Positions 2,546 to 33,087 of a stretch of 64,000 nucleotides of DNA are shown here, in pieces. The notes under the pieces were generated by a model. The model saw nothing but the letters and a program-made list of their open reading frames with translations, searched no databases and was not told the origin of the DNA. The stretch is taken from NCBI GenBank assembly GCA_944390355.1, contig CALXPT010000001.1:47115-111114 (forward strand). The letters are read 5' to 3'. Numbering within the stretch: position 1 is the stretch's first letter; every line of letters begins with the position of its first letter. This DNA is from an uncultured Alphaproteobacteria bacterium. GTDB lineage: Bacteria > Pseudomonadota > Alphaproteobacteria > RF32 > CAG-239. Made by a program: the position numbers and the translations under genes.

Positions 2546-3541
2546 TTAAGCTTTGGAACTCGGCTTTTTGCCGGCGTCAAACATCTGTTTGATGCCATCA
2601 AGTGAACTTAATATGCCGGTCGCCTCATAGGGCATATAGACTACTTTATTGTTCTCTCCCTCCGTGATACCTTTTAGGGTTTCAAGATACTTCATCGCTA
2701 TGAGGTATTTATCCGGCTGGCCATGGTTTGCTATTGCCTCGGTTACCATGCGAATTGCATTAGCTTCGGCTTCGGCAGTTTTAATCCGTGCTTCCGCCTG
2801 ACCTTCCGCCTGCAAAATTGCCGACTTTTTGGCTCCTTCGGCTTTGTTTATTTCGGCTTCTTTCTGCCCTTCCGCTTTCAAAATCGATGACTTTTTCTCG
2901 CCTTCGGCTTCCAAAATCGCTGCTCGACGCTCTCGCTCGGCCTTCATTTGTTTTTCCATCGCCTGCTGTATGTCCGCCGGCGGAATGATGTCTTGCAATT
3001 CTACGCGGTTGACTTTTACACCCCATTTATTGGTCGCTTCATCCAAAATCGCGCGGAGCTCATGATTGATTTTGTCGCGCGAAACCAAGGTCTCATCCAA
3101 ATCTATTGCGCCGACTAAATTACGCAAGGTGGTTTGGGTTAATTTTTCTATGGCTTCCGGAAGATTTTGAATCTCGTATACGGCACTCTTGGCATCCACT
3201 ATTTGAAAATACAGCAATGCATTGATGCTTATCGTTACATTATCTTTCGTTATCACATTTTGGCGCGGAAAATCATATACTGCCTCGCGCAAATCAATCT
3301 TCAACCGCTCTTTGATATACGAATAACTCTCGCCATTGGGCAATTTGGTGGTCATTTTCCATGAAATATAGCGCGGGGATTCCAGAATCGGAAATATAAA
3401 GTTCAACCCCGGGCCTAATTCCTTTTCAAATTTTCCCAAACGTTCGACTATTACCGCTTCTGCCTGCTGGACAATAATCAATCCTTTTATAAAATAAATT
3501 ACCACTGCCGCGATTAAGATTACTTCAAGTGTTACGTTCAT
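2546..3541 (-). CDS. SPFH/band-7 (stomatin/HflC-like) membrane protein
   Basis: N-terminal TM, SPFH core, C-terminal AEGEK/AEGQKEAE coiled-coil repeats. Start placed at the third Met (MNVTLEV...) with AAAGGA Shine-Dalgarno, 1 nt after the nfeD stop. Confidence 0.8.
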   Translation of the reverse strand: MNVTLEVILIAAVVIYFIKGLIIVQQAEAVIVERLGKFEKELGPGLNFIFPILESPRYISWKMTTKLPNGESYSYIKERLKIDLREAVYDFPRQNVITKDNVTISINALLYFQIVDAKSAVYEIQNLPEAIEKLTQTTLRNLVGAIDLDETLVSRDKINHELRAILDEATNKWGVKVNRVELQDIIPPADIQQAMEKQMKAERERRAAILEAEGEKKSSILKAEGQKEAEINKAEGAKKSAILQAEGQAEARIKTAEAEANAIRMVTEAIANHGQPDKYLIAMKYLETLKGITEGENNKVVYMPYEATGILSSLDGIKQMFDAGKKPSSKA

Positions 3542-3542
3542 G

Positions 3543-3980
3543 TTAGTTTTCCTTTCTGACATATAATATGAGGTTTTCATTTTTTTCTATAATCACGGTT
3601 TCGCCAACCTTGATTTTTTCTCCGTTCGTACTTCTGGCGTTCCAGCGTTCATCAAATATACTCACGACGCCGCTGTCTTTTGAGACTTCTTTCAAAACTT
3701 TGGCTTTTGAACCAATGTACCTGCCTATGCCGGTTAAGGCTTGCTCCTTGCTGTTCCTTTTTACCAAAAGCGGACGAAATACAAATAATCCAATCAACGC
3801 GGTGATTACCCATACCCAGACCAAAATACTTGTGTTTGCAGTGAATAACGACACGCCCGCTGTTACAAAACTCGCTAAAGCCAAATTCAGAAAGAACATC
3901 CCTGGGGTCAACATCTCTAAAATAATCAACACTACACCGCTGATACATAGGTTTTGCCAGTTGGAAAAATCTTCTAACAT
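3543..3980 (-). CDS. NfeD-family membrane protein (stomatin operon partner)
   Basis: Three TM segments plus a C-terminal OB-like domain; immediately upstream of, and translationally coupled to, the SPFH gene, the classic nfeD-stomatin pair. Confidence 0.7.
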   Translation of the reverse strand: MLEDFSNWQNLCISGVVLIILEMLTPGMFFLNLALASFVTAGVSLFTANTSILVWVWVITALIGLFVFRPLLVKRNSKEQALTGIGRYIGSKAKVLKEVSKDSGVVSIFDERWNARSTNGEKIKVGETVIIEKNENLILYVRKEN

Positions 3981-6639: not shown

Positions 6640-7554
6640 TCAGGCATTGAAATTTAAGCCCCATTCACTATAACGTGCGGGGTCGTTTCCCCAATCGGCG
6701 CGCACCTTTACAAACAAAAACAGGTGTACGCGCTCTTCCAATAAATCTTCTATTTCTTTTCGTGCCGCTTGCCCGATTTTTTTTATCATACTGCCATTTT
6801 TGCCCAGAACTATAATCTTGTGGCTATCTCTTTGTACATAAATCGTCATCTCGGCGCGAATCGAATTATCTTCTCTTCTTTGCCATAATTCCGGCTCTAC
6901 CGTTAACTCATAGGGGACTTCTTGCTGTAAGTACAAAAAAAGTTTTTCTCTTACGATTTCGGCGGCTAATAGCTTTAGGGGCATATCCGACATTTGCTCT
7001 TCGGGATAATACCATGGACTCTCCGGCAGATGCTCTGACAGATAGGCATAAAACTCTTCTATGTGTTCTCCGTTTTTGGCTGATATCATAAAAGTTTCAT
7101 CAAAGCGAAATTTTTCATTTAAGGCTGCACTTAATTCCAGCAGCTTTTCTTTTTTTAGCAAATCTATCTTATTGAGTACCAAAACCGCTTTTTGCTTGTT
7201 TTCTACTAATTTATTTATAATCTCATCAACTTGCGGGGTTATTCCCGAATGAGCGTCTACCACCAAAACCGTTATGTCGGCGTCTCCCGCTCCCGTCCAT
7301 GCGCTTGCGACCATGGCTCGGTCCAAGCGGCGTTTGGGCGTGAAAATCCCAGGGGTATCCAGAAAGATTATTTGTGTATTTTTATATATTCCTATCCCTT
7401 TTATTGTGGTTCTGGTTGTTTGCTCCTTCGGCGATACTATTGATACTTTTGAGCCGACAAAGTCATTGGTTATCGTGGATTTTCCGGCATTCGGCGCGCC
7501 TATTAAAGCTACAAATCCACAGCGTGAAATGTCCTGCATGGTATTATTTGACAT
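6640..7554 (-). CDS. era: GTPase Era
   Basis: G1 GAPNAGKST, G3 DTPG, G4 NKID, C-terminal KH domain; 11-nt overlap with rnc. Confidence 0.9.
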   Translation of the reverse strand: MSNNTMQDISRCGFVALIGAPNAGKSTITNDFVGSKVSIVSPKEQTTRTTIKGIGIYKNTQIIFLDTPGIFTPKRRLDRAMVASAWTGAGDADITVLVVDAHSGITPQVDEIINKLVENKQKAVLVLNKIDLLKKEKLLELSAALNEKFRFDETFMISAKNGEHIEEFYAYLSEHLPESPWYYPEEQMSDMPLKLLAAEIVREKLFLYLQQEVPYELTVEPELWQRREDNSIRAEMTIYVQRDSHKIIVLGKNGSMIKKIGQAARKEIEDLLEERVHLFLFVKVRADWGNDPARYSEWGLNFNA

Positions 7555-25953: not shown

Positions 25954-26589
25954 TTATCTTAAAGCGTTGATATTATTTTGATATTCCCCCATGGCAAAAA
26001 TTGACGTGCCGGCCACCAAAATATCTGCTCCTGCTTTCTTGCATTGTTTTGCTGTTTGGGGATTTATGCCGCCGTCTACCTCTATTGCTATCTCTTTACC
26101 CTTAATCATTTGCTTTACTCGGGTTATCTTGTCTAGCTGGCTCTCGATAAAACTTTGTCCGCCAAACCCCGGGTTGACCGTCATTATTAAAATTAAATCT
26201 ACATTACCCAGCACATATTCTATCACATCTTCCGGCGTGGAGGGATTTAACGATACGCCAGCCTTGCAACCCAATTTGCGTATCTCGGACAAGGTTCGGT
26301 CAAGATGTGCCGCGGCTTCGGCATGCACCGTGATTATATCAGCCCCTGCTTTGGCCATGTCTGCCAAAAATGTTTCGGGATGCTCAACCATAAGATGCAC
26401 ATCAAAAGGCAACCGGCTATGCGGACGCAACTTCTTTATAACCGGTGCACCAAATGTTAAGTTGGGGACAAAGCTGCCATCCATTACATCCAGATGAATC
26501 ATGTCTGCCCCACTCTTCTCCAGCAATTTAAGCTCGTTTTCTAAATTCGCAAAATCCGCCGATAAAATGCTCGGAGCTATCTTTACCAT
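25954..26589 (-). CDS. rpe: Ribulose-phosphate 3-epimerase
   Basis: MVKIAPSILSADF...HLDVMDG...HLMV; 211 aa. Confidence 0.9.
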   Translation of the reverse strand: MVKIAPSILSADFANLENELKLLEKSGADMIHLDVMDGSFVPNLTFGAPVIKKLRPHSRLPFDVHLMVEHPETFLADMAKAGADIITVHAEAAAHLDRTLSEIRKLGCKAGVSLNPSTPEDVIEYVLGNVDLILIMTVNPGFGGQSFIESQLDKITRVKQMIKGKEIAIEVDGGINPQTAKQCKKAGADILVAGTSIFAMGEYQNNINALR

Positions 26590-26729
26590 TTCTTTTCTCC
26601 TTGTTTATTTGTTTTCAGCATAGTCTGGCTGCCGTTAAATTACCATTAAAATTTCTCGTCCTCGTTGATTTTTTGAAAACTTTGATTACCTCTGTGGTTG
26701 ATTTTTATTTTTTTAGAGGAGAAAAAATT

Positions 26730-27230
26730 ATGTCGCAAATGGCTATGAAAATTTCTAAACTTGATAACAAAAAATTGCTCGATTTGCTCAATGTGGCTTT
26801 TGCCGAAGAATGGTTGGCCTATTATCAATATTGGATCGGGGCTCATTTGGCCGAAGGGGTGCTTCGTCATGCCGTGGTGAAAGAATTTGAAGAACACGCT
26901 GCCGAAGAACTCGAACATGCCGAAAAGCTGGCTAAACGAATCGCAGAACTCGGCGGTACCCCGCTTACGAATCCGAATATGTTTGAAAAAGTTGCCGAAT
27001 GCAAATATGAAGAGCCGAAAAACCTGCATGTTTCTATTCTGCTGCAGCAAAATTTGGCTTCTGAGCGTTGCGCTGTTGCTCGCTATCAGCAAATTTGCGA
27101 AATGTGCGAGGGCAATGATTATATCACCTTTAACATGGCCAGAGAGATTTTGGCCGAGGAAGTGGAGCATGAGCAAGAAATCGACTCGTATCTTACCGAC
27201 ATTGAAGTTTTTCGCGAGCACTTCAAATAA
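26730..27230 (+). CDS. Ferritin-like diiron-carboxylate protein (Dps/ferritin superfamily)
   Basis: E..E/ExxH motif pairs (EEWLAY, EEHAAEELEHAEK, EEVEHEQE); start at MSQMAMK with AGAGGAG Shine-Dalgarno. The upstream part of the track ORF and the antisense ORF are spurious. Confidence 0.6.
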   Translation: MSQMAMKISKLDNKKLLDLLNVAFAEEWLAYYQYWIGAHLAEGVLRHAVVKEFEEHAAEELEHAEKLAKRIAELGGTPLTNPNMFEKVAECKYEEPKNLHVSILLQQNLASERCAVARYQQICEMCEGNDYITFNMAREILAEEVEHEQEIDSYLTDIEVFREHFK

Positions 27231-27333
27231 ATAGACCAAATTTATTTTAACCTTTTGTTAATAATTTCAAGCACTTAGAGAGTTTTTAGCCATTATTGTT
27301 GCTATATTACTCTCTTTTTTTTGCAAAAAGTTG

Positions 27334-27360
27334 TTGACAAAATATCTAAAAAGATATAAT
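27334..27360 (+). promoter_or_regulatory. Sigma-70-like promoter TTGACA-15-TATAAT
   Basis: Near-consensus hexamers in an intergenic region with no downstream ORF before the terminator. Confidence 0.45.
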
Positions 27361-27364
27361 TTTA

Positions 27365-27606
27365 TGTCGAATTGGATAAAACGGATTCACCCCATTCTCA
27401 AAGAAGCGGACCCATAGACCTCATATCTCTAAAGCTCCAAATAAAAAATGGTCTACCGCTTTATAGAGAAAGGCTGCTACGGTTTTAAACTCACCGACAG
27501 CCTTACTCGCAGAGGCCGGCTCCCCCTAAGGCCGGCCTCTTTACTCCCCATTTTAGGGATTAACTTCAGATTGTAAGCACGTTTTTAAACGTGCTTTTTT
27601 CTTTTC
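27365..27606 (+). ncRNA. Candidate ~240-nt small RNA between the ferritin-like gene and fba
   Basis: Consensus promoter, internal hairpins (ggctg..cagcc at 27470..27500; gaggccggc-tccccctaa-gccggcctc at 27513..27539) and an intrinsic terminator (agcacgttt-ttaa-aacgtgct plus T7) at 27576..27606; only a 17-codon ORF. Confidence 0.4.
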
Positions 27607-27618
27607 TCAAATCCTTTA

Positions 27619-27655
27619 CAAAAAAAAGAGACTGCTCTATCGCAATCTCTTTTCT
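27619..27655 (-). terminator. Rho-independent terminator of fba (hairpin usable in both directions)
   Basis: agagactgc-tctatc-gcaatctct flanked by A8 and T-runs, directly downstream of the fba stop. Confidence 0.6.
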
Positions 27656-27678
27656 GTTCTTAACCTACTCGCTCAAAC

Positions 27679-28728
27679 CTAAATTTCTCCGGCGGCGTAG
27701 CGTTTGGCCATTTCGGACATCGGAATGGCTCTAATCTTGTCAGCATGGCCGGCCGCGCCAAATGCAACATAGCGGGCTTCGCACACTTTTTGCATTTCTT
27801 CAATCGCTGGTTTGAGGTATTTGCGCGGGTCAAATTCTTTCGGATTTTCTTGGAATATCTTGCGAATCGCTCCCGTGATTGCCATACGGCAGTCCGTATC
27901 GACATTAACCTTACGAACACCGGATTTGATGCCCCTTACTATCTCTTCAACCGGAACACCGTAGGTCTGCGGAATTGCACCGCCGTATGCATTAATCAAA
28001 TCCTGCAATTCTTGCGGAACGGATGATGAACCATGCATAACCATATGTGTATTCGGCAGCTTTTTGTGAATCTTTTCAATCACGTCTATCGCCAAAATCT
28101 CGCCATCCGGCTTGCGCGTAAACTTATATGCTCCGTGTGATGTGCCGACGGCAACCGCCAATGCATCCAAATGGGTTTCCGCAACAAACTTAGCAGCTTC
28201 ATCCGGATCGGTTACCAAGCGTTTTTTATCAATCACTCCTTCTGCGCCGTGGCCGTCTTCTTTATCGCCCTTACCTGTTTCCAGAGAACCGATTACCCCC
28301 AACTCACCTTCAACCGACGCACCGACAGCGTGCGCTCTGGCGACAACCTCTTTGGTTACCTTCACGTTATATTCAAATGATGACGGGGTTTTGCCGTCTG
28401 CTTCCAATGAACCATCCATCATCACCGAAGAATAACCGTTAACAATCGCTGACTGACAGATATCTACCGATGAACCATGGTCTTGGTGAATACAAATCGG
28501 CAATTCCGGAAACATTTCTATTCCGGCCTGCACCATGTGGCGAATCATCGGGTCGCCGGCAAACTTTCTCGCTCCGGTCGAGGTTTGCAATATAACCGGC
28601 GCATTAACTTTTCTTGCGGCTTGCAACACCGCTATTACCTGTTCCATATCATTGATATTAAACGCCGGTACGCCGTAATTATTTTCTGCCGCGTGATCCA
28701 GAATCTGACGCATTGTTACTAAAGGCAT
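27679..28728 (-). CDS. fba: Fructose-bisphosphate aldolase, class II (CbbA/FbaA subtype)
   Basis: MPLVTMRQILDHAAENNYGVPAFNINDMEQ..., His-rich Zn site HQDHG, 349 aa. Confidence 0.85.
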   Translation of the reverse strand: MPLVTMRQILDHAAENNYGVPAFNINDMEQVIAVLQAARKVNAPVILQTSTGARKFAGDPMIRHMVQAGIEMFPELPICIHQDHGSSVDICQSAIVNGYSSVMMDGSLEADGKTPSSFEYNVKVTKEVVARAHAVGASVEGELGVIGSLETGKGDKEDGHGAEGVIDKKRLVTDPDEAAKFVAETHLDALAVAVGTSHGAYKFTRKPDGEILAIDVIEKIHKKLPNTHMVMHGSSSVPQELQDLINAYGGAIPQTYGVPVEEIVRGIKSGVRKVNVDTDCRMAITGAIRKIFQENPKEFDPRKYLKPAIEEMQKVCEARYVAFGAAGHADKIRAIPMSEMAKRYAAGEI

Positions 28729-28878
28729 TGTTTAACTCCTTTTCTAATTTGTTTATCTCTGTTGCGAATATATTATTTTCACCACGTTTTGCAAGTTTTT
28801 TTTATTTTTATGCATTTTTCATGCACAAAAGACTTGACTTTTTGACAAAATTAAATATTCTGTCAACGAAATTAATTT

Positions 28879-29274
28879 TTGTGTTTTATGGATATGTCTT
28901 TGTATTTCGTTTTGGCCGTTAGTCTTGCTATCGGCTTGGCTTATGTGTCGTTTATTTTTTACCGCGTCAGTCAAATTGCTCTCAGGAGTGTGTGGGCAAC
29001 CATTTTGGCCGGTGTTATCATTGTGTGGTACGGATGCGCTTATCCCAGTTATGCTTTCTATGCCTTTGGGTTTTATGCGGCTTATGTCTCAATCTCTTCT
29101 CTCCGGCAAATTCGGAAGCTGAAGTCTGATGAGAAGTTAATTAACCCGCAAACGCAAGCCAAACGTTTGGATTTATGCATCGCCAAGCAGAAAATGCTCC
29201 AGTATTGGTTTTTCTACATTTTTCTCGGCTGTGCTTTCTTCACTTGGTGGGCTTTACTCTTGTTTGTCCATTGA
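28879..29274 (+). CDS. Small membrane protein, 131 aa
   Basis: 2 TM, K/R-rich linker, 1 TM; followed by its own terminator hairpin at 29288..29327. Confidence 0.5.
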   Translation: MCFMDMSLYFVLAVSLAIGLAYVSFIFYRVSQIALRSVWATILAGVIIVWYGCAYPSYAFYAFGFYAAYVSISSLRQIRKLKSDEKLINPQTQAKRLDLCIAKQKMLQYWFFYIFLGCAFFTWWALLLFVH

Positions 29275-31730: not shown

Positions 31731-31885
31731 AATTATTTATTTTTTATATGTTTCTGTTTATGGTTATAAAACATTTTTGTTATCAAATCAATAGTTTTGT
31801 CTATTTTCTTTTAGTTTTATTTTCTTTATTAATCATAAGTCAACTTTTGTTCTTTATAATCTCTTTGTTATTTGGTGAGGATGAT

Positions 31886-32419
31886 ATGAAAAAAATTTTT
31901 TTATTAATTGCTTTTTTTCTATTTGCCTATCAGGCTCATGCACAATACATGAGCGGCTCTAATGTGTCTTATCAACGGGCGCAAAGCTCAACACCTTCCG
32001 AATCGGCTCTCGTTCCCAGCAAAGACGAACAAGATCTTGCGATTGTTGCACATGACCGCGCCAACCAAATTGTTGAAAATTGCTTGCGCAAGTTGCAAAA
32101 TTATACCAAAAATCCTCCGGTTGCTAAAGAAATTATTCAACTTGATAAAGAGGCTAATGCTTGTATTGAAAAGGCTTTAACCGACGAACTCAAAAAAGGT
32201 GTTGCTTCTCAATGGCTTCCGAGAACGGCTGAGGAACTCGAAAAAGCCAAAACATCTTTATTTAATTTATATTACATCATTTATAACTATGGACCCAAAT
32301 GCAACGGAAAATGTATCGACATGGCGCAGATTTCGGCTTACGGAGAGCAAGGTGTTGTTCTCAGTGATTTGCTTTCGGCTGCGATTTTTATGAATTTGTC
32401 GGCTGCTCAAAAAAAATAA
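31886..32419 (+). CDS. Secreted hypothetical protein, 177 aa
   Basis: Signal peptide MKKIFLLIAFFLFAYQAHA with GGTGAGGA Shine-Dalgarno. Confidence 0.55.
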   Translation: MKKIFLLIAFFLFAYQAHAQYMSGSNVSYQRAQSSTPSESALVPSKDEQDLAIVAHDRANQIVENCLRKLQNYTKNPPVAKEIIQLDKEANACIEKALTDELKKGVASQWLPRTAEELEKAKTSLFNLYYIIYNYGPKCNGKCIDMAQISAYGEQGVVLSDLLSAAIFMNLSAAQKK

Positions 32420-32553
32420 TCTTTGTTTTAATCTTTAGTTTACTTTTCCGATTCTCCCTTTGTTTTTTCTTATATAAAGACAAAATTTGACAAAGACTCT
32501 TTAAGGTGCTATAATTGTTTATCGTCAGTTTTTTACTTAGGGGAGATTGTATC

Positions 32554-33087
32554 ATGAAAAATTCTGAAAATGAAAATAAATCTGTTTTTCAACTCAATGA
32601 GTCTCAATTAAAAACAATTCTTTCTCGGCATATGTATTTTACGGCTCATAATTCTGACAGCGAATTTGAAAAACTGCCGGCTCATCTTCGCCGCGCAATT
32701 AACCGTGAGGCGGAATTTCATGTTAAAACCATGTCTCAAGTCGAAGGATTGTCCGAGATTTTGAATGATTCCAACCTTGAAAAAGCACAGGAAATGCACA
32801 ATGCTCTGTGCGAATACTTTGCTCACAAAGGAAATGAGGATGAAAAACACCATCCTAACCGTGATACAAATACTTTTGCGCAACTTCTCCGCCGCGACAG
32901 CGATGCTATTTATCTTAATCCTTATGAAGAGCAGAGACGCGAAACTTCTGATGACAAATCAAAACGCTTGGCTAAGAAAATTAACGAAAAGATTTCCGAA
33001 CGTAAGGAAAAAGGTTCTTTAACTTCAGCAAAAGAAACTTTTGACATCATTATGAACCATCTGCGGACAAACTCCGGCAGAAAATAA
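32554..33087 (+). CDS. Hypothetical charged soluble protein, 177 aa
   Basis: GGGGAG Shine-Dalgarno; terminator downstream. Confidence 0.5.
   Translation: MKNSENENKSVFQLNESQLKTILSRHMYFTAHNSDSEFEKLPAHLRRAINREAEFHVKTMSQVEGLSEILNDSNLEKAQEMHNALCEYFAHKGNEDEKHHPNRDTNTFAQLLRRDSDAIYLNPYEEQRRETSDDKSKRLAKKINEKISERKEKGSLTSAKETFDIIMNHLRTNSGRK

Follow-up and report, generated by a model that had tools for sequence, protein, structure and literature searches.

A structured RNA gene 3' of dpsL as a candidate small RNA family of uncultured gut Alphaproteobacteria

The window analyzed in this work is a stretch of 64,000 nucleotides (nt; 64 kb) from an uncultured alphaproteobacterium (contig CALXPT010000001.1), with a G+C content of 41%. 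A 448-nt gap between two converging genes, the ferritin-like gene dpsL on the + strand and fba on the - strand, holds an element that is very probably an independently transcribed, structured non-coding RNA (ncRNA) gene, extending from ~27369 to 27544, with a longer form that may reach ~27602. As judged by sequence comparison, the product is a small RNA (sRNA) of an undescribed family, inherited together with dpsL in at least 15 lineages of uncultured low-GC gut Alphaproteobacteria. For the whole statement, namely that this ncRNA gene exists and that its product acts in trans by base pairing through loop 1, we estimate a probability of about 0.55. The signals found are those generally used to recognize a bacterial sRNA: its own promoter, here of sigma-70 type, past the dpsL terminator, an intrinsic terminator at the 3' end, no conserved reading frame, and a covarying structure. 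The features of the locus are listed below in window coordinates.

25954-26589: rpe, in the window
26730-27230, + strand: dpsL, DPS-like ferritin gene of 166 codons, stop codon at 27228-27230
27277-27322, + strand: intrinsic terminator of dpsL, stem AGAGAGU/ACUCUCU followed by U8 (T8 in the DNA), upstream boundary of the sRNA unit
27334-27339, + strand: -35 box TTGACA, invariant across nine type A and seven type B lineages (both types are defined below)
27355-27360, + strand: TATAAT, proposed earlier as the -10 box, 15-nt spacer from TTGACA
27357-27362, + strand: putative -10 box TAATTT, from comparison, 17-nt spacer, overlapping TATAAT and displaced 2 nt to its right
27369-27388, + strand: SL0, 5' hairpin (GAAUU...GAUUC), formed in eight of nine type A lineages (not L090) when sequences are folded singly
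27396-27469, + strand: P1, possible closing helix UCUC (27396-27399)/GAGA (27466-27469) that encloses SL1, both sides nearly invariant
27403-27462, + strand: SL1, 29-nt loop on a two-part stem (GAAGCGG/CCGCUUU and UAGACC/GGUCUA), from folds, with RNAalifold and covariation for the inner helix
27433-27445, + strand: loop-1 motif AGCUCCAAAUAAA, proposed seed, invariant in nine type A lineages
27470-27504, + strand: SL2, with loop motif AAACUC at 27487-27492
27511-27540, + strand: SL3, GC-rich hairpin of 11 base pairs (bp) with loop CCCCCUAA (27522-27529), the terminator hairpin of the family, followed in the window by UUUA only
27541-27574, + strand: 3' extension with single-stranded CUCCCC (27544-27549) and a small hairpin (CCCC...GGGA region), lineage-specific
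27575-27606, + strand: second intrinsic terminator, 9-bp stem AAGCACGUU/AACGUGCUU (27575-27596) plus U6CU4C
~27619-27655, - strand: fba terminator, hairpin of 13-14 bp and U-run (stem plus run read UCUCU8)
27679-28728, - strand: fba, converging on the gap with dpsL

The gap is 99% identical in contigs of the same species (n=7). Contigs encoding an identical Fba protein belong to human-gut metagenome assemblies and have GcrA nearby, and the relatives at species level are metagenome-assembled genomes (MAGs) labelled as uncultured Alphaproteobacteria, Rhodospirillales or 'Azospirillum sp.' from human, primate, rodent and ruminant guts. When 80 genome loci were collected through fba, a sole type A homologue was recovered (locus L008), in which a gene for a protein of 177 amino acids (aa) is inserted between the RNA and fba; synteny with fba yielded no others, since the RNA accompanies dpsL rather than fba. 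Collection through dpsL homologues (63-73% identity) returned a homologous element every time, located 70-180 nt 3' of dpsL on the same strand, and the upstream side of these contigs always carries rpe and a response regulator gene, divergently transcribed. The type A RNA is ~180 nt long, lies directly 3' of the dpsL orthologue and occurs in nine species-level lineages: the window, L008/L101, L090, L092, L096, L099, L108, L109/110 and L111/112. A pattern scan of metagenomes added two further contigs only, both of the L092 lineage. The spacer DNA that flanks the element is unalignable between lineages, whereas the sequence and structure of the element itself are conserved, although the Rpe and DPSL proteins of the compared lineages are only 52-73% identical. 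A reading of this locus made earlier from the sequence alone (the sequence-only reading) had called the region a candidate sRNA and suggested conservation of the intergenic region as a check; the element proved to be kept 3' of the dpsL orthologue in all nine lineages.

The -35 and -10 boxes proposed in that reading, a near-consensus TTGACA-15-TATAAT, are both present, and such pairs are rarer by chance than observed: exact TTGACA-N14-19-TATAAT occurs twice in the window, compared with 0.13 expected from shuffles. A consensus promoter scanner missed the 15-nt-spaced site, as it accepts spacers of 16-18 nt only. The placement of the promoter holds, but the comparison of nine species favors TAATTT over TATAAT as the working -10 box. 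Each of the nine type A lineages has a hairpin and U-tract of unrelated sequence after dpsL and, 10-25 nt later, an invariant TTGACA. A TAnnnT hexamer (TAATTT, TAAGTT, TAAATT, TATATT, TATCTT, TACTTT or TACGAT) then lies 16-18 nt past TTGACA in each of the nine and abuts a conserved TA(T/C/A/G)G(T/A)C(G/A)AAT block, as read by eye. From the position of this -10 box, the 5' end of the RNA is predicted at ~27369±2. The RNA is placed on the + strand because the promoter and the U-tracts lie on this strand and because, at paired positions, G-U combinations (46 cells) outnumber A-C combinations (29 cells). Inspection of the promoter spacers by eye revealed no conserved palindrome, with ATATCT-N4-AGATAT occurring in the window alone. 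A direct repeat, TGACAAA(T)TTT, was observed at the -35 box (window 27335-27346) and near the predicted start (27366-27375), ~32 nt apart, and is plainer in L099, L092, L096 and L109; it could represent an operator pair or merely the 5' arm of SL0.

The same promoter bears on whether the element is the 3' untranslated region (UTR) of dpsL, or a fragment processed from it, with no independent promoter activity. The RNA does share the strand of dpsL and invariably comes right after it, and since the window has a weak dpsL terminator (7-bp stem, 25-nt loop, -14.7 kcal/mol, z = -3.3), read-through is plausible. However, a hairpin and U-tract separate dpsL from the element in every lineage, and the invariant TTGACA with TAnnnT at 16-18 nt stands out amid otherwise unalignable spacer. 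The promoter also persists where it leads into a protein-coding open reading frame (ORF) in place of the RNA 3' of dpsL, as in L037 (~7130-7150, - strand) and probably L018 (~3360-3450, + strand). We consider a 3' UTR origin improbable. As the sequence-only reading had stated, the ferritin-like gene stops ahead of the promoter, and it has its own hairpin and T8 in addition; conservation, the dpsL terminators, the invariant -35 box, covariation and the lack of a conserved ORF together support its proposal of an sRNA with its own transcription.

When folded singly, all nine type A sequences adopt a common four-hairpin layout, except that L090 is without SL0. The stable hairpins noted earlier are borne out by the fold of 27366-27606, at -77 kcal/mol compared with -49.5±4.6 in dinucleotide-preserving shuffles (z = -6.0; none of 200 as good), and the L008 fold has z = -6.9. 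RNAalifold recovers the inner part of SL1, SL2 and SL3, with SL2 predicted independently. Two covariance models were built, and base pairs were counted on a 14-sequence alignment (A7) in which 90% of cells form standard pairs. Two-sided changes occur in 16 of 45 pairs of A7, compared with 10.2±1.7 in column shuffles (0 of 500 reach 16), counts to be read with the alignment being fitted to the model, which favors the structure, and the shuffle control ignoring phylogeny; when the 3' partners were slid by 1-3 columns, 2-8 pairs showed such change. The largest contributions come from SL3 (8 of 11 pairs compensatory, 95% paired) and the lower helix of SL2 (6 of 7 pairs changed on both sides, 96% paired), followed by the inner helix of SL1 (2 of 6 pairs compensatory, 95% paired). 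The three main loops (AGCUCCAAAUAAA, AAACUC and CCCUAAU) are nearly invariant across type A, with loop 3 conserved as CCC(C)UAAU and represented in the window by CCCCUAAU. At the strain level, four of five substitutions inside the RNA fall in SL0 (window 27369-27388; also 27407), one or more of them disrupting a predicted pair. Of all parts of the RNA, SL0 seems to be under the least constraint, and its helix is weakly supported.

Convergent gene ends often have several hairpins, and an AT-rich region favors promoter-like hexamers, so the gap might be thought to hold no gene at all, only a chance promoter-like match beside the terminator pile-up of fba and dpsL. This view is hardly credible, since the comparison between lineages already contradicts it: the element keeps its sequence and structure although Rpe and DPSL have diverged to 52-73% identity and the flanking spacer cannot be aligned, and it shows compensatory changes and invariant loop motifs.

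The intrinsic terminator noted in the sequence-only reading is present (27575-27606), but the conserved RNA core stops earlier, at the GC-rich hairpin 27511-27540 (SL3). A U7-U8 tract comes after SL3 in L008, L096 and L112. The U-run is short or interrupted, commonly as UUU(U)CUCCCC, in the window, L090, L092, L099, L108 and L110, which have a second terminator 30-50 nt further on. CUCCCC or CUCC occurs after SL3 in the window, L090, L092, L108 and L099 and is not found in L008, L096, L112 and L109, and 27541-27606 as a whole is a lineage-specific 3' extension beyond the conserved core. Two isoforms of ~176 nt and ~235 nt are plausible in the window, and 27575-27606 is probably the 3' end of the ~235-nt form. 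Its stem (27575-27596), followed by TTTTTTCTTTTC, is the sole terminator-like site on the + strand in 26000-29000 and is distinct from the strong fba terminator, a minus-strand hairpin with a U-run. The earlier description of fba as convergent with a separate terminator was accurate.

Beyond this point the gene order varies. The downstream neighbors of type A RNAs include fba, CheR, a histidine kinase, a DUF1566-like gene, a HAD hydrolase and small or partial ORFs without a family name. Distinct genes are inserted right after the sRNA terminator, namely a DUF1566-like gene of 177-193 aa (L008 5110-5643, - strand; L101 2932-3513) and a HAD hydrolase gene (L111/L112 ~2893-3560). To judge from a neighbor that differs in almost every lineage, gene turnover seems to be concentrated on the 3' side of the sRNA. 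These arrangements also bear on a possible cis-regulatory leader or riboswitch with a terminator as its expression platform, which in the window would have lost the gene that it regulated. A same-strand gene does begin ~70-80 nt after SL3 in L008/L101 and L111/L112, but the genes concerned are the unrelated DUF1566-like and HAD hydrolase genes. Of the remaining seven type A lineages, five have a convergent gene next to the RNA, L108 has a short ORF on the same strand that belongs to no family, and in L109 the contig stops immediately past the RNA. The RNA is never consistently 5' of one gene family, and neither an alternative anti-terminator pairing nor an Rfam riboswitch match was found, which makes a leader very improbable. 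The 177-aa protein of L008 was also considered as a regulated gene family and set aside, as it is unrelated by eye to the two 177-aa ORFs of the window.

In seven further lineages (L012 with the near-identical contig L088, L014, L016, L019, L040, L043 and L104), the same place 3' of dpsL is occupied by a different RNA body, termed type B. It has in common with type A the TTGACA promoter after the dpsL terminator, a hairpin loop (A/G)CUCCAAAUA(A/G) and a terminator; besides the promoter, CUCCAAAUA is the sole sequence common to both types. Type B DPSL proteins are 52-62% identical to that of the window, with the exception of L088 (87%). Covariance model R2 weakly detects two type B loci on the correct strand, L016 with 21.8 bits (E = 0.004) and L104 with 14.6 bits. 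Across 15 aligned SL1-type hairpins of both types, the only invariant columns are the nine bases CUCCAAAUA. The 15 lineages carry 13 different SL1 5' arms, each of which pairs best with its own 3' arm (mean run 6.4, compared with 4.5 for cross-pairings; 0 of 20000 permutations reach the observed total). Two side observations concern this type. L037 retains a CCAUAAUCA segment of the type B loop. The type B RNA of L088 (1256-2141) is nearly identical to that of L012 (5048-5903), though the DPSL of L012 is only 55% identical to that of the window and the DPSL of L088 87%; either recombination at the dpsL/sRNA junction or a chimeric assembly would account for this mismatch.

The statement of the sequence-only reading that only a 17-codon ORF lies in the region was incorrect. 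Mechanical listing gives + strand ORFs of 17, 28, 38 (TTG start) and 42 codons (ATG, 27448-27576) and a - strand ORF of 24 codons. Its description of the region as non-coding stands, since none of the listed ORFs is conserved. A small protein gene, whether the 17- or 42-codon ORF of the + strand or an antisense ORF, has in its favor these ORFs of the window and a minus-strand GGAG-N6-10-ATG found in the window, L012, L014, L016, L043 and L104. However, the 17-codon ORF is broken in three sister strains by a TGG to TGA change at codon 4, and its ATG is absent from L092, L108, L112 and L109. On neither strand do the nine lineages share an ORF in frame, position or length; those of at least 15 codons differ in all three from lineage to lineage, and L090 has none. 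The antisense ATG is absent from L040 and most type A lineages, and where present it would open peptides of 5-21 unrelated residues read through a covarying stem, while the promoter and terminators face the + strand. We regard a coding function as very unlikely.

A search of known RNA families, recommended earlier with 6S RNA, alphaproteobacterial sRNA families and riboswitches in mind, gave no match. Rfam 15 produced no hits in the whole window at gathering thresholds, only chance-level matches in 27150-27750 at E values up to 10, and no match to the RNA in nine orthologous or related loci; ARAGORN found no tRNA or tmRNA. The family is called undescribed because this check was negative. 6S RNA forms a long imperfect rod with a large central bubble, and it was rejected as a candidate since the nine lineages fold as separate hairpins. 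A search for repeats and paralogues (blastn against the window, covariance-model searches of the window and ~60 loci) gave one copy per locus, with weak matches elsewhere (E of 0.1-2) taken as noise; a repeat or mobile element was ruled out by the single copy. Among the papers that could be searched, we found the loop motif in none in a bacterial context and no described dpsL-linked alphaproteobacterial sRNA. The motif is also absent from the first 200 of the 408 supplementary files of a catalogue of structured RNAs in the human microbiome (PMC8040213).

We propose that the sRNA acts in trans by base pairing, with CUCCAAAUA(AA) of loop 1 as the seed. The seed complement, UUAUUUGGAG, corresponds to a Shine-Dalgarno (SD) GGAG with a U-rich 5' flank, so that pairing would occlude ribosome-binding sites and repress translation; the complement of the nine invariant bases, UAUUUGGAG, likewise reads as an SD-like GGAG with a U-rich flank. 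The C/U-rich single-stranded motifs AAACUC and CCCCUAAU, and in some lineages CUCCCC, may serve as auxiliary anti-SD sites, and an Hfq-type chaperone would be well served by the A-rich portion of loop 1 together with the U-tail at the 3' end. Loop 1 is read as a recognition element because its nine bases are the most constrained part of the molecule while the stems, and in type B the whole body, change freely. A base-pairing sRNA that blocks ribosome-binding sites, in the manner of AbcR, NfeR1/CcsR or RsaE, is favored because the complement is SD-like and the other conserved unpaired motifs are C/U-rich. The last and weakest step of this proposal is that the regulon may concern oxidative or iron stress, a possibility raised because linkage with dpsL is kept while everything downstream turns over.

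The main rival to base pairing is a structured ncRNA whose action depends on a protein partner or on tertiary contacts, as in the sequestration of an RNA-binding regulator, with the loops as protein-recognition or loop-loop elements. Three different, nearly invariant loops on freely covarying stems are typical of recognition elements, and the target searches yielded no mRNA target. On the other hand, the loops differ from one another, with no repeated motif as in known sequestering RNAs; type B persists with one loop of the three; dpsL is the only linked protein gene; and the complement of loop 1 resembles a ribosome-binding site. Altogether, a protein-partner or tertiary role is possible, though unlikely.

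Several results weigh against the proposed base-pairing sRNA or against parts of it. Target searches covered only the 64 kb of the window and a few kb from each relative. Within the window, the seed complement shows no enrichment, with 8 matches at up to one mismatch compared with 8.1 expected. Duplexes of loop 1 with all start regions gave no conserved pairing with dpsL, rpe or the response regulator gene; pairing with the dpsL start reaches -11.0 kcal/mol in the window and ~-6.5 kcal/mol, the background mean, in other lineages. Two ribosome-binding sites carry the complement (window 31868 and L027 604), and the proteins they precede are unrelated. The site at 31868 is the only start-site match of the window and is not significant alone. 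No Hfq signature was found in the window, a 64-kb sample in which such an absence is uninformative. A protein-binding or tertiary-contact role would account just as well for three differing invariant loops. On the structural side, compensatory changes are absent from SL0, from P1 (86% of cells pair, no covariation) and from the outer SL1 helix, which are conserved or only G-U variable, and the A7 counts carry the bias described above. Synteny is the sole observation behind the stress link, and orthologues of dpsL without the RNA occur in L026, L064 and L103.

Duplexes of the whole molecule with dpsL leaders were unrealistically long and were discarded. As an observation in its own right, UUAUUUGGUG at window 31868-31888 (+ strand) matches the loop-1 complement with one mismatch and overlaps the ribosome-binding site of a 177-aa secreted protein (31886-32419). 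A far-reaching form of the base-pairing proposal would make the RNA the post-transcriptional arm of an oxidative-stress or iron-sparing response, an independently evolved analogue of OxyS and RyhB in which a dpsL-sRNA module silences a set of mRNAs through CUCCAAAUA. We offer this only as a speculative and rather doubtful extension. To our knowledge, no RyhB-type sRNA has been established in Alphaproteobacteria.

The neighboring genes gave several further observations. The best solved relative of DPSL is the Bacteroides fragilis DPS-like protein 2VZB (E = 4e-50), followed by archaeal DPS-like proteins, and the NCBIfam DPS models match below their cut-offs; on these similarities the ferritin-like protein is a DPS-like mini-ferritin, and its gene is named dpsL here. 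A conserved TTGATT-N17-(G)ATTACCTC lies ~45 nt 5' of the dpsL start, at ~26646-26690 in the window and at the same place in eight relatives, and probably represents the dpsL promoter, with a -10 region that is conserved but unusual. Fba is 90-98% identical among most MAG species (L008-L043) despite identities of 60-72% for Rpe and 52-65% for DPSL, which could reflect unusually strong constraint or recent exchange of fba among gut lineages. The other perfect TTGACA-N17-TATAAT of the window (32487-32515, + strand) lies just 5' of a 177-aa gene at ~32554-33087 that has no Pfam family, and judging by this position it is probably the promoter of that gene.

For gut-associated uncultured Alphaproteobacteria, in which no riboregulators have been described, the locus supplies a well-delimited sRNA family supported by covariation. 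With a candidate seed, a usable covariance model and a fixed anchor in dpsL, the family can be annotated in MAGs and searched for in gut metatranscriptomes. If the dpsL link is functional, it would point to post-transcriptional control of oxidative or iron stress in oxygen-sensitive gut bacteria. The comparison of types A and B further presents an sRNA that has retained just its promoter and a 9-nt loop, the remaining molecule having been replaced.

When compared with known systems, the best sub-threshold Rfam match is mmgR/suhB (RF00519), an alphaproteobacterial sRNA, at 27539-27611, where a small hairpin, a linker and the terminator are aligned. However, the score is 23.8 bits compared with a gathering threshold of 41, the match is confined to the 3' tail, which is lineage-specific, and depends on the terminator, the CCUCCCU block is aligned to AACUUC--AGA, and nothing similar appears in nine orthologous loci.

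AbcR1 and AbcR2 (alpha-r15) of Rhizobiales are trans-acting sRNAs with their own promoter and intrinsic terminator, whose C/U-rich anti-SD loops or linkers pair with ribosome-binding sites. The dpsL-linked RNA also shows C/U-rich loop motifs on covarying stems, but it resembles them neither in sequence nor by covariance model, with no Rfam match, even below threshold, in nine orthologous loci. The motif is CUCCCA there and CUCCAAAUA here, and the present RNA is longer, with four hairpins, linkage to dpsL and uncultured gut hosts. The alpha-r14 'cuckoo' RNAs (NfeR1, CcsR1-4) have several hairpins in which a conserved C-rich loop, CCUCCUCCC, is repeated, and occur in tandem copies; the CcsR RNAs are induced by oxidative stress and lie directly 3' of a small stress gene. 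The order of a stress-type gene and then a multi-hairpin sRNA with conserved loops is similar here. In contrast, the dpsL-linked RNA is a single copy without an Rfam match, has its own promoter after a terminator, and carries three unlike loops (AGCUCCAAAUAAA, AAACUC and CCCCUAAU), none of them CCUCCUCCC.

RsaE/RoxS of Firmicutes is a conserved, redox-responsive sRNA whose unpaired C-rich motifs block the SD sequences of metabolic mRNAs. Like the family described here, it conserves its loops more than its stems, and the mechanism proposed here is analogous; it differs in phylum, size and fold, with no homology detected. The sRNAs of the OxyS and RyhB/PrrF type have their genes beside, or in the regulon of, oxidative-stress or iron-storage genes. 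With these, the dpsL-linked RNA has no sequence similarity; no conserved pairing with dpsL mRNA is predicted, inspection of the promoter by eye revealed no conserved Fur, Irr or OxyR-like operator, and a functional link would be conjecture. The likeness lies in the tight linkage of the RNA to a DPS-like mini-ferritin. Compared with all these systems, the family appears to be new but of a familiar kind, that of the free-standing bacterial sRNA.

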